Assembly (NCBI GenBank): GCA_964497535.1
Contig: CAZCCG010000001.1
Span: 2,688-66,687, forward strand
Direction: 5' to 3'
DNA: 64,000 nt
DNA from: an uncultured Gammaproteobacteria bacterium
GTDB lineage: Bacteria; Patescibacteriota; Microgenomatia; Levybacterales; UBA12049
Part shown: piece after piece, positions 34,874 through 48,724 of the stretch
Numbering within the stretch: the stretch's first letter is position 1
How the letters are laid out: every line of letters begins with the position of its first letter
Position numbers and translations under genes: made by a program
Notes under the pieces: model-generated
What the model saw: only the letters and a program-made list of their open reading frames with translations
Databases searched by the model: none
What the model was told of the DNA's origin: nothing

Positions 34874-35797
34874 TCACAAAACTATAGAAGCTAAGAAAAA
34901 TATAACGGCCAAAACAACCAGCTGTATATACATCCCCGGTACCATCCCCACCCAGTGTGTATGCCAATGGGCATCTATTTTATTAAGCTTTCTAAATCCA
35001 TACCCAGGATTAAATACAAACCAAAAGAAATCCTCAAGTAATATTGCCAAACACAACACCCCAAGCATCTGCAATTCCAAAGACCAGGAAAAAGTAATCC
35101 CAAAGAAAAATCCTGCCTGCATCAGTACCACGACAAAAATAGTCAACCATGTGTGGTAGCCAGTGACTGGTCGTTGCCCAACAAAGAAATGGGAAATCTT
35201 GGTGACCATTCGCCAGGTCGGTAACTTCTGTGCCCATCCATCCACTCCCTCTACTTGTATCTCAAGCTGTGCTACAAAAAAAGAGGCTACTATTCCAAAA
35301 AGACAAATCATCATAATTGATGGGTTTGCAAGAGGAGTATCCTGAGCAATAAAACTCAACAAAAAAAAGATTACTCCACCGGTAAAAAACTTGAGATATG
35401 AAAGTGGAATTGATCCAAACCACTCGTGATGCCAGGTAATATCTTTTTGTGTGAACTTTTTCAAGCCATAATGAGGGTTGAGTACAAACCACAAGAAATC
35501 CTCAACAAGCCAAATGAAGCAAAATGCCGAAAGGATATGCAGTTCCAATGTAAGATCCCACGAAAGAGTAAGAACAAATACCCCATGCAGAAACCAAAGA
35601 ATAGTTGTAATAAGCCAAAAGTGATACCCTGTTAACGGCGCTTTTCCATAGATGATTTTCGTAAACTTATTGCGTAGTCTCCACGTGGGAAGTTTTGCTG
35701 CCCACCCATCTTTACCCTCAATTTCGATTTCAAGCTTTGCCAATGCAAAAGATACCAGAAGAATAAAGAGGATAAATGGAATAATCAGGCTACTCAT
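34874..35797 (-). CDS. membrane protein with internal tandem duplication (two ~150-aa repeats)
   Basis: KLEIEIEGKDGWAAKLPTWR...PLTGYHFWL repeated as QLEIQVEGVDGWAQKLPTWR...PVTGYHTWL. Start overlaps the ftsH stop (TAATG). Confidence 0.6.
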   Translation of the reverse strand: MSSLIIPFILFILLVSFALAKLEIEIEGKDGWAAKLPTWRLRNKFTKIIYGKAPLTGYHFWLITTILWFLHGVFVLTLSWDLTLELHILSAFCFIWLVEDFLWFVLNPHYGLKKFTQKDITWHHEWFGSIPLSYLKFFTGGVIFFLLSFIAQDTPLANPSIMMICLFGIVASFFVAQLEIQVEGVDGWAQKLPTWRMVTKISHFFVGQRPVTGYHTWLTIFVVVLMQAGFFFGITFSWSLELQMLGVLCLAILLEDFFWFVFNPGYGFRKLNKIDAHWHTHWVGMVPGMYIQLVVLAVIFFLASIVL

Positions 35798-37674
35798 TAG
35801 GATTTTACTTTGGTGGGGATAACAGTCGGTACCGTAGCTGTGGCAATTCCGATTTTGGGGCCAAGCAATGCTTTAAATTCATCAGCATCCAGTGTTTCTT
35901 TTTTCATCAGTTCTTCTGCCAAAACATCCAACTTATCATGCAGTTTTTTCAGTACCGCAATGGCTGTTTTATATCCTGCATCTGTCAATTTCTTAACTTC
36001 CATATCGATTTTTGATGCCATCTCAGGAGAAAGTTTGCTATCTTCATAGGGTGATTCTTTTTCCAGATCCAGACTCATTGGCCCCAACTCACTCATACCA
36101 TAGTCAGTTACCATAAGCCGTGCAACACGAGTTGCTTTGGCAATATCATCTGATGCTCCTGTTGTCATTTCTTTAAATATCAGATCCTCTGCCGCACGAC
36201 CTCCAAGCATCATCGCAATCATTTCAATCAAATAGGTTCTGGTCTGATGCACCATATCTTTGGGTTCGATCATGGTATGTCCTAGTGACATCCCGCGAGA
36301 AACAATAGAAATTCTATGGACCGGCTCGATGTGTGGCATCTCCCATGATACAAGCGCATGTCCTGCCTCATGGTATGCGGTCATTTTGCGGTCTTCTTCA
36401 GACTGGAGACGTCGTTTCTCAGGACCCAGCTTTACCTTTGTCGCCGCCTCTTCAATATCTTTCATGTCAATGGCTTTTTTCCCAAGACGCGCTGCCAGGA
36501 TTGCTGCTTCATTGAGCATGTTTTCCAAATCAGCACCGGAAAAACCAACAGTTCGTTTGGCCACACGTTCCCAATCAACAGCTGGCTCAAAGGGTTTGCC
36601 TTTGGCATGTATTGATAAAATTGCTTTTCGCCCAACAACATCCGGCATATCCAACGCAACACGCCGGTCAAACCGTCCAGGCCGAACCAGTGCAGGATCC
36701 AAAACATCAGGACGGTTGGTTGCTGCCATAACTACCAGTTTTTCAGTCGGTGCAAATCCATCCATTTCGACCAGAATCTGGTTGAGGGTTTGTTCGCGTT
36801 CATCGTGTCCACCCATCAGACCCATTCCCCGTTGCCGTCCAATCGCATCAACCTCATCGATAAAGATAATTGCCGGCTGGGCCTTTTTCGCAGTATTGAA
36901 TAAATCGCGTACCCGGCTTGCACCTACACCGACAAGCATTTCCATAAATTCAGATCCTGCCATTGAAAAGAATGGAACACCCGCTTCTCCTGCTGTTGCC
37001 CGTGCCAACAACGTTTTACCGGTTCCGGCCGGACCAATCATCAGTACCCCTTTGGGAGTACGAGCTCCCATTGCCTTATACTTTTCAGGATGCTTGAGAA
37101 AATCAACAATTTCTGTAAGCTCTTGCTTGGCTTCATCAACTCCCGCGACATCTTTGAAAGTAATCTGGGGCTGGTCTTTGTTGAATAATTTTGCTTTGGA
37201 CTGTCCAAATGAGAAAATATTATCTTGTGCTCCCCTTGCCTGGCGGAATATAAAGAAGAAAAAACCAATCATAAGCACAAGCGGCAATAAATTGGTAAGA
37301 AGATTCAGCCAATTGGTAACGCCTGTTTCATCTTTTACCGTAACATTGGTATTTTGCAAGGATGCTCCCGCATCTTTAAAAAGACTATAGACATTGGAAC
37401 CAGGCTCTTTCAAACTCTCTACCGAGTTACCATTTTTCAACTTTGCGGTAATTTTATTATCAGAGACGGTAATTTGTTTTACCTGACCCTTTTTTACATT
37501 TTGAATAATTTGAGAAATCGGTACAATGTTTTTATCTTCAAAGGGTGTGGCAAGCCCTGCCAAGAGAAACAGTGTAACGAGAATAAGAACTCCATACAAG
37601 ACCAGATTCTTCCAGGATAAATCAATTTTTACTTTTAGAGGTTTTTTGGAATGTCTTTTCCCATTAGAAGCCAT
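35797..37674 (-). CDS. ftsH: ATP-dependent zinc metalloprotease FtsH
   Basis: [13 protein letters not shown] Walker A, SRF, HEAGHAL zinc motif. Confidence 0.95.
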
Positions 37675-40540: not shown

Positions 40541-40876
40541 TTAGCCTTGATTTTTTATGGTTTGAGGAGCAATAAATACTACTTTACGGAGTGGCATTTC
40601 ACAAATTCCTTCTTGTACGAGCTGCCCTACCACCTCGGCTTCTGGCTCATTTCCGCGTCTGCAAATCCCACGCAGTTCTACCCCAGGTACATTATGATAG
40701 ATTCCCTGTTCATCTTTACTAACATGATTTCGTGCATCAAAGGTAATTGGTCCAACGTAGACATTATCTACTGCTCTAAGCACCTCACGGGCGCGAGCTT
40801 CGTCTTCATCCCGGCAAACGAATTTAAACAACGTTATATCTGTAATCTCTCCTTCTTTCATATGGTTCACCATCAA
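40541..40876 (-). CDS. hypothetical protein
   Basis: 111-aa ORF; no family recognised. Confidence 0.4.
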   Translation of the reverse strand: MMVNHMKEGEITDITLFKFVCRDEDEARAREVLRAVDNVYVGPITFDARNHVSKDEQGIYHNVPGVELRGICRRGNEPEAEVVGQLVQEGICEMPLRKVVFIAPQTIKNQG

Positions 40877-40930: not shown

Positions 40931-41055
40931 TATGTATTATTCTAGCAAATCCTTCCCTGACGGGTTGGGTGTAGCACCGTGCCCTTGGCCGGTTGCTGGA
41001 TGGATCATCGAGCCAATACTCTCCCCATCTCTCACGATTTATTTAATTAATCCTA

Positions 41056-45206: not shown

Positions 45207-45302
45207 ACTCTTATTCTACCCTATCCATGCCACAACAGACTCCTGTTGAGTTTGACCAAAGCTAATTCAGTTGGTATAATGGCTTTCTAACATGCGGGGA
45301 AG

Positions 45303-45372
45303 TGTAGTGGTGCACAAAGGGCTCATAATCCTTTAGGCTAGGTTCGACTCTTAGCCCCGCAACTCAGGTCAT
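45303..45372 (+). tRNA. tRNA-Met (anticodon CAT); elongator, initiator or tRNA-Ile2 cannot be distinguished
   Basis: Hand-folded cloverleaf. 7-bp acceptor TGCGGGG/CCCCGCA, anticodon loop CTCATAA, T-loop TTCGACT, no encoded CCA. Confidence 0.7.
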
Positions 45373-45390
45373 TAAAGAAAAAAACCACTT

Positions 45391-45418
45391 TAGGTGGTTT
45401 TTTGTTGGAAAAATATCT
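45391..45418 (+). terminator. intrinsic terminator after tRNA-Met
   Basis: aaaaccactttaggtggtttttt. Confidence 0.65.
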
Positions 45419-46825: not shown

Positions 46826-47686
46826 ATGAAGCAAATCGGATTACGGGATGCCCACCATGCATTTAAAGATTTTTTAAAGGAAAAAAAGCACTCAACATCT
46901 ACCATTGTAGCATATGGCAAAGACATCGAGCAGCTTGTTTCTTTTTTGGGTGAACTTGAAAAACATCAGGTTCATGAAGTGTCCAGAGAAGACCTGGAAG
47001 CTTTTTTGGGCAAACTTTCTGGAGAAGGCTATACTCCAAAGTCACTTTCCCGCAAAATTAACTCAACTCGAACCTTTTATCGATTCCTCAAGGTAAACGA
47101 ATACCTTACCGACGACCCGTCACTTCTGATCGAACATCCTAAATATGAACTTACTCCCCCACGAATTCTGACCCCAACCGAATATAGAGCACTCCGAGAC
47201 GCAGCCCGCAATGATCCCAGAATGTTTGCTATTATTGAGCTGTTACTCCAAACCGGAATCAGAATTGGAGAATTGGCTAATTTAAGAATGTCAGATATCC
47301 AAAAAGATATGCTGCGCATCCGACCCTACGAAAAACATGAAGAAAGAACAGTTCCTCTCAACAGATCAGCCAAAGAAGCCCTCACTAGATACCTCTCTAT
47401 CCGCCCGGAAGTCAAAGAAGAAAGAATTTTTGTCACCAAATCAGGCAAACCGTTTTTGGTCAGAAACATCAGAACCGCAGTAGAACGATATTTCCGACTT
47501 GCTGAGATCAAAACAGCCAAGGTAAATGATCTACGACACACCTTTGTCGCCCATCACTTGAAACATGGAGTATCCCTTATCCTTCTCTCAAAGATACTCG
47601 GACACAAGAGACTTTCTACCACTGAACGATATCTCGAATACGTGAAAGATAGGGCTAAAGAAACCGCTACATTAACAGAATTATAA
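46826..47686 (+). CDS. tyrosine recombinase (XerC/XerD-like phage-integrase family)
   Basis: N-terminal SAM-like core-binding domain. C-terminal R...HxxR...Y: LRHTFVAHHL...LGHKRLSTTERY. Confidence 0.8.
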   Translation: MKQIGLRDAHHAFKDFLKEKKHSTSTIVAYGKDIEQLVSFLGELEKHQVHEVSREDLEAFLGKLSGEGYTPKSLSRKINSTRTFYRFLKVNEYLTDDPSLLIEHPKYELTPPRILTPTEYRALRDAARNDPRMFAIIELLLQTGIRIGELANLRMSDIQKDMLRIRPYEKHEERTVPLNRSAKEALTRYLSIRPEVKEERIFVTKSGKPFLVRNIRTAVERYFRLAEIKTAKVNDLRHTFVAHHLKHGVSLILLSKILGHKRLSTTERYLEYVKDRAKETATLTEL

Positions 47687-47729: not shown

Positions 47730-48443
47730 CTACGGCAATAAAATCCTGATGAAGTTCTCAGCGTAGGTATACCCTTTTTGCTTGCCAATATCCATTGCTC
47801 GATTCCTTACTCGCTCTTCTATTTTTTTAAAGTCCTCAAACTGGCTTTTGTGTCGACGTAGTGTTTCAATTTTCTTCTCCATAGTATGGGTAATATCCAC
47901 AACCGTATCTATCTTTTCAAAGCTGGTGAGCCATAATTCTTTTACTTTGTGCGGCTTAAGGCCTTCTTTCTCATGTTCCAAGAAAGTGAGTCGGTCTCGA
48001 GCCAGTGGAAATACCGCATCGAGTGTTGCCAAGGCAGCTGCCCGATGGTCAGTGTGATTCACCATACCGCTGCCTGAAAGCAGTGAATTTGTCGAATAAT
48101 AGTAGGTCGGATCCATAGTCATGACGATATCTGGTTTCAAGGTTCGGATCAGCCGTACGATTTCTTCTTTGAGTACCTGATCAGCAACCAGTTCTGTATC
48201 AGGATGGGTCAGAAAAAAACACTGTTTGACGCCTAATACTTTATTTGCATCTTTCTGTTCTTGTTGCCGTAGCGTAATCAGCTTCTGATGAGTCATATGA
48301 GGATCTGAAGAACCCTTGGAACCGTTTGTACATAAAAGATAATATGCAGTTGCTCCCTCCCCGATCCATTTGGCAATCGTCCCTGACGCGCCAAAATCAG
48401 TATCATCCGGATGCGCACCAACCGCCAAAATTACTTTATTCAT
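47730..48443 (-). CDS. PIG-L/LmbE-family N-acetylglucosaminyl deacetylase
   Basis: ILAVGAHPDDTDFGASGT motif. Confidence 0.8.
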   Translation of the reverse strand: MNKVILAVGAHPDDTDFGASGTIAKWIGEGATAYYLLCTNGSKGSSDPHMTHQKLITLRQQEQKDANKVLGVKQCFFLTHPDTELVADQVLKEEIVRLIRTLKPDIVMTMDPTYYYSTNSLLSGSGMVNHTDHRAAALATLDAVFPLARDRLTFLEHEKEGLKPHKVKELWLTSFEKIDTVVDITHTMEKKIETLRRHKSQFEDFKKIEERVRNRAMDIGKQKGYTYAENFIRILLP

Positions 48444-48463
48444 AGTATCTCTTCTCTCAACTG

Positions 48464-48534
48464 TAGGCCCAGAGGGAATCGGACCCCCGTCAAGTGTGTA
48501 TAAGACACCCGCTCTACCATTGAGCTATGGGCCT
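48464..48534 (-). tRNA. tRNA with anticodon TAT (tRNA-Ile-UAU, AUA-decoding)
   Basis: Hand-folded. Perfect 7-bp acceptor AGGCCCA/TGGGCCT, D-arm GCTC-AATGGTA-GAGC, anticodon loop CTTATAC, T-arm GGGGG-TCCGATT-CCCTC. Confidence 0.65.
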
Positions 48535-48584
48535 GGGAACTACGTAATTTTACCAGAGAGAGCTCAAGGAGACAAGCCAGGACT

Positions 48585-48715
48585 CGGTTACCAGTTCTCT
48601 GTTTTCTGTCATCAGATAGAAGTTCGTCAGTTTTCGGTACTTCAGTTTTAACAGATTAACTGAGAACAGATAAACCCGCATCTGATAACTGACAACCAAA
48701 AACCGATAACTGAAG
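48585..48715. repeat. repeat family A, copy 2
   Basis: Diverged copy of the 13645 element. Confidence 0.7.
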
Positions 48716-48724
48716 TTTCTATTC

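Follow-up and report, generated by a model that had tools for sequence, protein, structure and literature searches.

Reading AUA as isoleucine without misreading AUG is a classic decoding problem, and the bacterial solution is said to be almost universally lysidine, which depends on the essential TilS; the documented exceptions amount to a handful of species, e.g. Mycoplasma mobile, Bifidobacterium, and Neorickettsia. We analyzed a 64-kb stretch of bacterial DNA (the window) in which the initial annotation had read a tRNA gene with the anticodon UAU, a gene that raises the question of how its host decodes AUA. We propose, with a probability of about 0.7, that this is a functional chromosomal tRNA-Ile(UAU) gene whose product would decode AUA directly, that it is the counterpart of tRNA-Ile2 in CPR bacteria, and that it is most likely the sole AUA decoder of its host.

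The tRNA-Ile(UAU) gene and its genomic setting

ARAGORN, applied to the 64-kb window, placed a tRNA-Ile(tat) on the minus strand at 48463-48534. In Rfam, RF00005 matches 48464-48534(-) over its full length, and its 67.8 bits stand well over the gathering score of 29 (E approximately 1e-12). Both programs agree with the initial annotation on position and anticodon, and the ARAGORN run that it had proposed as a check left the anticodon unchanged. The gene spans 71 nt from position 1 to the discriminator A73 (48464-48534, minus strand), an assignment supported by ARAGORN, RF00005, the MFE cloverleaf, and a covarying family. The anticodon, identified by both programs and by reading the sequence, occupies positions 34 to 36 (48500-48502, minus strand) in the loop C32-U33-U34-A35-U36-A37-C38. 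The RNA reads AGGCCCA UA GCUC AAUGGUA GAGC G GGUGU CUUAUAC ACACU in its 5' part and UGAC GGGGG UCCGAUU CCCUC UGGGCCU A in its 3' part. All four stems are fully paired (acceptor 7 bp, D 4 bp, anticodon 5 bp, and T 5 bp), 21 of 21 stem pairs are standard, and the MFE fold is the cloverleaf (-27.8 kcal/mol). The clean cloverleaf that had been folded by hand, with a 7-bp acceptor stem, a canonical D-arm, and the loop C-U-UAU-A-C, is borne out by Rfam and by this fold. The D-loop is 7 nt long; the variable loop, with its 4 nt, places C48 opposite A15 in a non-canonical A15/C48 combination. No CCA is encoded, so a CCA-adding enzyme would be required to add it after transcription. Position 34 of the gene is T, i.e. 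the gene is without the C34 that serves as TilS substrate in the canonical lysidine-dependent tRNA-Ile2(CAU). The initial annotation had allowed for a pseudogene or degenerate copy; with this score and intact stems, the gene is real and intact and not a degenerate copy.

On the 5' side of the gene, a consensus scan and reading of the sequence identified a sigma-70-like promoter match (48547-48575, minus strand), composed of TTGTCT, a 17-nt spacer, and a TG-extended TAAAAT that ends 12 nt from position 1. The tRNA would be transcribed from this promoter-like site of its own. No terminator-like site was found between the tRNA gene and the PIG-L gene that starts at 48443. Co-transcription of the tRNA and the PIG-L gene as a conserved feature is disfavoured because the orthologue in locus L075 lies on the strand opposite to its neighbours: at 792-864 of that locus, the tRNA sits between the same ATPase and PIG-L genes but, unlike in the window, on the strand opposite to both. 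In the window, a spacer of 190 nt (48535-48724) separates the ATPase gene from the tRNA and contains short, imperfect two-copy direct repeats (..GATAACTGA) and a pair of complementary arms at 48627-48647 and 48702-48716.

The gene neighbourhood identifies the kind of host. The window, with a G+C content of 41%, has small housekeeping genes, namely those for TrpRS, Tgt, MurD, MurI, FtsH, a DivIC-like protein, a XerC/D-like recombinase, a PIG-L deacetylase, and a 788-aa DUF87/TraG-like ATPase. Synteny was analyzed by tblastn of the window proteins against the loci fetched by the tRNA pattern scan. The order 788-aa ATPase, tRNA(tat), PIG-L is repeated in L075, a locus of Candidatus Levyibacteriota, at 72% and 63% amino acid identity, respectively, and the ATPase gene adjoins tRNA(tat) also in L003, L038, L124, L139, L136, and L149 (60-64% identity). 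The tRNA copy of L075 is 72% identical to that of the window, and the copy in metagenome contig L121 is 90% identical. Because of this conserved order and linkage in relatives, we assign the host, on sequence grounds, to the Microgenomates group of CPR/Patescibacteria, as a Levyibacteria-like bacterium. The earlier suggestion of a reduced or AT-rich lineage holds in its first part, the host being of a reduced-genome group, and not in its second, as the G+C content shows. Two of the syntenic contigs carry other labels: in L003 (labelled Bathyarchaeia) and L038 (labelled Gammaproteobacteria) the ATPase and XerC homologues are 48-64% identical to the CPR proteins of the window, and both contigs have a CPR-type UAU tRNA. 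These MAG contigs have probably been mis-binned or mislabelled.

Some other features of the window and of related loci were recorded. In about 20 CPR loci, from Saccharibacteria, Paceibacteria, Kaiser-, Taylor-, and Nomurabacteria and others, tRNA-Ile(UAU) lies directly downstream of ftsH (e.g. L079 5629-7653, L016 3775-5800, and L090 70-2060); the ftsH gene of the window (35797-37674) is 11 kb from the tRNA. A 110-aa ORF at 40541-40876 on the minus strand, for which Pfam lists no family, has a SAM riboswitch (RF00162, 48.3 bits) immediately upstream, at 40944-41043(-). Between 54000 and 58000 the G+C content is 0.49-0.51, against approximately 0.41 elsewhere, a rise that could reflect foreign origin or a different constraint on this segment.

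A tyrosine recombinase gene (46826-47686) and the TraG/DUF87-like ATPase gene flank the region of the tRNA, as might be expected if the tRNA were an accessory gene brought by a phage or mobile element, or the marker of an integration site, outside the core translation set. Viral relatives of the tRNA also exist: 11 IMG/VR contigs carry UAU tRNAs with the same D-arm (L152-L161 among them); the acceptor stem begins with AGGCC in some, and in several the variable loop is 4 nt long. Two of them, both in phage tRNA arrays, begin with AGGCC (L152 1518-1590 and L157 3749-3822), and L157 has the 4-nt variable loop as well. However, the phage copies belong to arrays of several tRNAs, have CCA encoded in most cases, and show A38 in a CUUAUAA loop, unlike the CPR chromosomal type, whereas the window gene stands alone in a housekeeping context. 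The flanking genes look housekeeping-like and their linkage to the tRNA is kept in relatives at 50-72% amino acid identity, the window proteins have no homologues in any of the viral loci, and the G+C content around the tRNA matches that of the rest of the window. We therefore consider a phage or mobile origin very unlikely for this gene, while UAU tRNAs may have been exchanged between phages and CPR bacteria.

A family of UAU tRNAs in CPR genomes and its relation to tRNA-Ile2

The distribution of such tRNAs was analyzed in one genome per GTDB species with a pattern that combined the D-arm with an anticodon of either CAU or UAU and a T-loop in which position 55 could be U or C; it yielded at least 119 loci. 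Among the matches listed, the CPR-labelled genomes had 29 UAU and 2 CAU anticodons and the other genomes 7 UAU and 81 CAU (Fisher p = 8e-19), counts that depend on the imperfect taxon labels of MAG contigs. The 29 CPR genomes with UAU represent at least 11 named candidate phyla, their labels being Saccharibacteria, Kaiser-, Pacei-, Taylor-, Uhr-, Adler-, Nomura-, Levyi-, Veblen-, and Doudnabacteria, 'Parcubacteria', and 'Patescibacteria group'. Both CPR matches with CAU are Met-like, with C3:G70 and without C4/C5, and of the 7 UAU matches outside the CPR label, again among those listed, 3 are labelled only 'bacterium' and 2 are the probably mis-binned L003 and L038. Among the matches listed, no CPR member of the Ile2-like family with this D-arm has an anticodon other than UAU. 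A genomically encoded UAU tRNA-Ile, which had been described as uncommon, is so in cultured bacteria and not in CPR, where 29 of the 31 matches listed have UAU; there it looks like the rule within the clade.

The UAU matches of the genome scan and 30 metagenome contigs gave 56 distinct UAU sequences (alignment A1), a family defined by the D-arm UAGCUCAAUGGUAGAGC, the loop CUUAUAN, A73, and covarying stems, all of which the window tRNA has. Because the search pattern fixed the D-arm, positions 32 to 37, and most of the T-loop, invariance there is uninformative (C32, present in 56 of 56 sequences, is an example), and information comes from three stems (acceptor, anticodon, and T), from position 38, and from the variable loop. 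Across the 56 sequences, 99.3% of the stem cells are paired, 15 of 17 variable pairs show changes in both partners, and the covariation score reaches 0.746 compared with 0.179 in shuffled alignments and at most 0.145 when the partners are slid. The discriminator is A73 in all 56, and at position 38 there are 40 sequences with C, 12 with A, and 4 with U. This pattern of substitutions indicates that the UAU tRNA family is under structural selection across many CPR phyla.

To place the window tRNA among known types we used E. coli references (Ile2 of the ileX type, Ile1, elongator Met, and fMet) that had been verified against the RefSeq annotation. The window tRNA is 66% identical to tRNA-Ile2(CAU), 57% to tRNA-Ile1(GAU), 53% to elongator tRNA-Met, and 45% to tRNA-fMet, and reaches 74-75% identity with the GGGCC...CAU tRNAs of non-CPR bacteria that have the same D-arm. 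Throughout the family, C3:G70 is absent (0/56) and C4:G69 (40/56) and C5:G68 (32/56) are common, as in E. coli Ile2. The Ile-type features A73, C4-G69, and U12-A23 are present in the window tRNA, and some E. coli IleRS identity elements are missing, position 38 being C instead of A and pair 29-41 U-A instead of C-G. Given the nearest reference, the acceptor pairs, and the non-CPR CAU tRNAs with the same D-arm, the CPR UAU tRNA is most simply read as the orthologue or counterpart of tRNA-Ile2 in which U has replaced C34. The same C34-to-U route from tRNA-Ile2 has been proposed for Mycoplasma by Taniguchi et al. (PMC3575796). The window tRNA resembles E. coli ileX/ileY tRNA-Ile2(CAU) in A73, in C4-G69/C5-G68, and in the task of reading only AUA, and differs from it in having U34 in place of C34, a shorter D-loop and variable loop, C38, and C55.

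ARAGORN found only one other tRNA in the 64-kb window, a plus-strand tRNA(cat) at 45293-45363 (48.6 bits), 3.1 kb from tRNA-Ile(UAU). The initial annotation had named a CAU tRNA alongside the UAU one; this tRNA is neither Ile2 nor elongator Met. Its acceptor core, GCGGGG/CCCCGC, and its A73 are also those of E. coli fMet, to which it is 61% identical (compared with 50% to elongator tRNA-Met, 48% to tRNA-Ile2, and 39% to tRNA-Ile1), and the homologues in L038 and L149 match it at 76-81% identity. By these sequence features it is an initiator-type tRNA, and as such it has no part in AUA decoding. Its first pair is U1-A72 and not the bacterial C1xA72 mismatch, it has A8 in place of the near-invariant U8, and a terminator-like hairpin follows it on the 3' side at about 45370-45400. 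Matches to STnc540 and mir-103 near this tRNA were below the Rfam gathering scores and were taken as chance.

Meaning of AUA and its proposed decoding without lysidine

The 57 ORFs of the window use AUA 218 times in 17,018 codons (12.8 per 1000, 17% of Ile codons), and the codon is found in nearly every gene, so that AUA usage, which the initial annotation had asked to be checked, is substantial for this host. Some CPR lineages have altered genetic codes, and AUA might have been reassigned (e.g. to Met, as in many mitochondria), in which case the tRNA would carry an amino acid other than Ile. We scored the homologue residues opposite the window codons, leaving out positions at which the homologue itself has AUA. 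Opposite AUA, the residues are I 0.34, V 0.29, L 0.21, and M 0.03 (I, V, and L together 84%), which resembles AUU (I 0.43, V 0.20, L 0.18, M 0.04) and AUC (I 0.49, V 0.16, L 0.09, M 0.04) and not AUG (M 0.25, L 0.20, V 0.13, I 0.12). With M at only 3%, as for AUU and AUC, and with stop-codon usage that looks standard in the window, the probability of a reassignment is close to nil. The residue pattern indicates that AUA is an ordinary Ile codon in the host, and therefore that a decoder for it is needed.

In the decoding that we propose, U34 of tRNA-Ile(UAU) would pair directly with the A of AUA. Because U34 replaces C34, the lysidine site, TilS would have no substrate in this tRNA and lysidine would be unnecessary. 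Charging by IleRS is suggested by A73, C4-G69, U12-A23, and the overall Ile2-like sequence, and the IleRS of the host would have to accept UAU. E. coli IleRS accepts UAU poorly, M. mobile IleRS accepts it through Arg865, which aligns with W905 of the E. coli enzyme, and Bifidobacterium and Neorickettsia have a eukaryote-type IleRS (PMC3575796). No IleRS was found in the window or in the CPR loci, and the only one seen was in a single non-CPR locus. AUG would be avoided through competition with tRNA-Met and/or through properties of the loop or the ribosome. The 32-38 pair tunes codon affinity, and C38, in the C32/C38 loop that is conserved in CPR (C32/A38 in E. coli Ile2 and the phage copies), is for this reason a candidate, admittedly a speculative one, for weakening U-G reading. 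The model for such avoidance is M. mobile, in which the ribosome limits AUG misreading and tRNA-Met competition helps (PMC3575796).

The window represents about 6% of a roughly 1-Mb genome, and within it no PP-loop ORF was found. The SGGxDS motif of TilS had no match in the window or in CPR ORFs, and tblastn with E. coli TilS had none in the window and fetched loci (1.18 Mb in total, in which the expected number is low). In other bacteria tilS is often upstream of ftsH. The gene upstream of ftsH, as classified by Pfam, was tilS in none of 9 CPR loci. With so short a stretch of each genome covered, these negatives are weak. In our reading, tilS and a CAU-type tRNA-Ile2 are both probably absent from the host. 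The UAU tRNA could instead be a functional but redundant one, in a genome that also keeps tilS and a CAU-type tRNA-Ile2 and reads AUA with both. There is precedent for this, since Taniguchi et al. (PMC3575796) list bacteria that have both tilS and a TAT tRNA gene, and both decoders have been proposed for Lactobacillus casei and L. plantarum. We regard redundancy as unlikely here: none of the 31 CPR matches listed is an Ile2-like CAU tRNA, the two with CAU being of the Met-like type described above, and neither the TilS searches, for all their low expected number, nor the ftsH loci yielded tilS. Moreover, another wobble-modification system is apparently missing from CPR, in which the tRNA-Arg ACG gene, the partner of the TadA deaminase (wobble editing), is reported to be absent (PMC8629427). 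The reading that we prefer, a sole decoder with UAU, agrees with these results.

The closest known system is M. mobile, where an unmodified UAU tRNA-Ile2 decodes AUA without tilS (Taniguchi et al. 2013, PMC3575796). The window tRNA shares with it the genomic UAU anticodon, the Ile2 lineage, the meaning of AUA as Ile, and a reduced-genome host, and, judged on its sequence, has the structural and decoding features of a TilS-independent tRNA-Ile2(UAU) of the M. mobile type. The differences are that M. mobile is a single species of Tenericutes, whereas the window tRNA belongs to CPR, where the trait is apparently clade-wide across many candidate phyla, and that the window tRNA has C38 in place of the usual A38 and C55 where the M. 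mobile tRNA has pseudouridine 55. A suppressor of a tilS deletion in B. subtilis is a G34-to-U mutant of tRNA-Ile1 (Fabret 2011, cited in PMC11947777; Kohrer 2014, PMC3919564); it shows that a UAU tRNA-Ile can sustain AUA decoding in a bacterium without lysidine, and differs from the window tRNA, a natural and conserved gene of Ile2 descent, in being a laboratory-selected mutant of the major Ile1. Other domains likewise read AUA and not AUG, each with a dedicated modification: eukaryotes with a tRNA-Ile whose UAU becomes pseudouridine-A-pseudouridine, and archaea with a tRNA-Ile2 that carries agmatidine (TiaS).

The window gene itself is ordinary for its lineage, and the interest lies in the clade-wide distribution and in the oddities of C55 and the T-loop. 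Among the matches listed, the UAU family replaces the CAU form throughout the sampled CPR. Extended from this sample to the whole CPR/Patescibacteria radiation, the proposal that AUA is decoded with a genomic UAU tRNA-Ile with a C32/C38 loop and no lysidine system is a tentative one, to which we give somewhat less than even odds. If it is true, the textbook need of almost all bacteria for TilS would be wrong for an entire superphylum, and if tilS is absent from CPR, TilS-independent decoding would be a major lineage-level strategy and no oddity. Such a pattern without tilS would also bear on the proposal (Taniguchi et al. 2013, PMC3575796) that UAU came first as the decoder of AUA. The literature describes UAU tRNAs as limited to a few bacterial species, along with unexplained metagenomic TAT sequences (371 in 2013, 19 species in 2014). 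Our searches, which covered the literature incompletely, found no publication linking CPR to lysidine or UAU tRNAs, and nothing relevant on CPR, Patescibacteria, or Saccharibacteria in combination with tilS, TAT, or TruB; the clade-wide pattern may be under-reported, and it may be known to annotators.

C55 and the T-loop of CPR tRNAs

Position 55 is U (pseudouridine 55) in nearly all tRNAs. The T-loop of the window tRNA reads UCCGAUU, with C55 at 48482 (minus strand), as read in the sequence. The initial annotation had called this loop atypical, and it is so even within the family: in the genome scan, which allowed either base, 2 of 36 distinct UAU sequences among the matches listed have C55 and 34 have U55, i.e. 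C55 occurs in approximately 6% of the family. C55 is not a sequencing error because an identical T-arm, C55 included, is present in a separate metagenome contig, L121 (JGI). It is present also in the Logan assembly SRR9179560 (L001), which is 100% identical to the window over 15.8 kb including the tRNA and may share reads with it. A metagenome scan restricted to C55 returned 30 contigs, among which the acceptor stems take many different sequences and nevertheless remain paired; it follows that the variant has probably arisen or spread repeatedly, and persists. C55 is frequent in Microgenomates-like contigs syntenic with the window (L038, L124, L139, L142, L136, and L149), and U55 is found in L075, L003, and L105.

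The presence of C55 where U55 is almost invariant, together with the non-canonical A15/C48 and the unencoded CCA, could be taken as signs of a decaying or pseudogene copy. The Rfam score is nevertheless far over the threshold and the four stems are perfectly paired, and L121, with its identical T-arm, differs from the window tRNA by compensatory changes in the acceptor and anticodon stems. In addition, C55 occurs in the 30 metagenome contigs with varied, pairing acceptor stems and in CPR tRNA-Met, and no other AUA decoder is in view, yet AUA is used in nearly every gene. A decaying copy is thus highly improbable, and we read C55 in a functional tRNA-Ile(UAU) as a tolerated minority variant of the lineage, with no sign of decay.

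The variant extends to other tRNAs of these bacteria, ones for which the scans had not selected. In CPR elongator tRNA-Met, C55 (T-loop UCCGA) is found in L124 (8155-8227), L142 (2597-2669), and L149 (8364-8437); the set of such tRNA-Met loci and one tRNA-Gly also includes L046 (138-210) and L071 (1422-1495), and the tRNA-Gly(tcc) is in L020 (1887-1960). The other tRNAs in the C55-bearing CPR loci have U55, and C55 was found in 0 of approximately 135 tRNAs of non-CPR loci. As encoded, C55 rules out pseudouridine 55 in the window tRNA and should alter the G18-55 contact of the elbow; as C55 and A15/C48 are two non-canonical positions of the tertiary core, they could lower its stability.

The initiator homologues in L038 (2204-2274) and L149 (8184-8256) have the D-loop AGAGCU, which is without G18G19, and the T-loop CGCGACU, which suggests a remodelled D/T-loop elbow in these tRNAs. 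Taking the C55 of tRNA-Ile and tRNA-Met together with the CGCGACU T-loop and GG-less D-loop of these initiators, one possibility is that T-loop constraint is relaxed in the AUN-box tRNAs of CPR, with a remodelled elbow and with pseudouridine 55 lost at least there.
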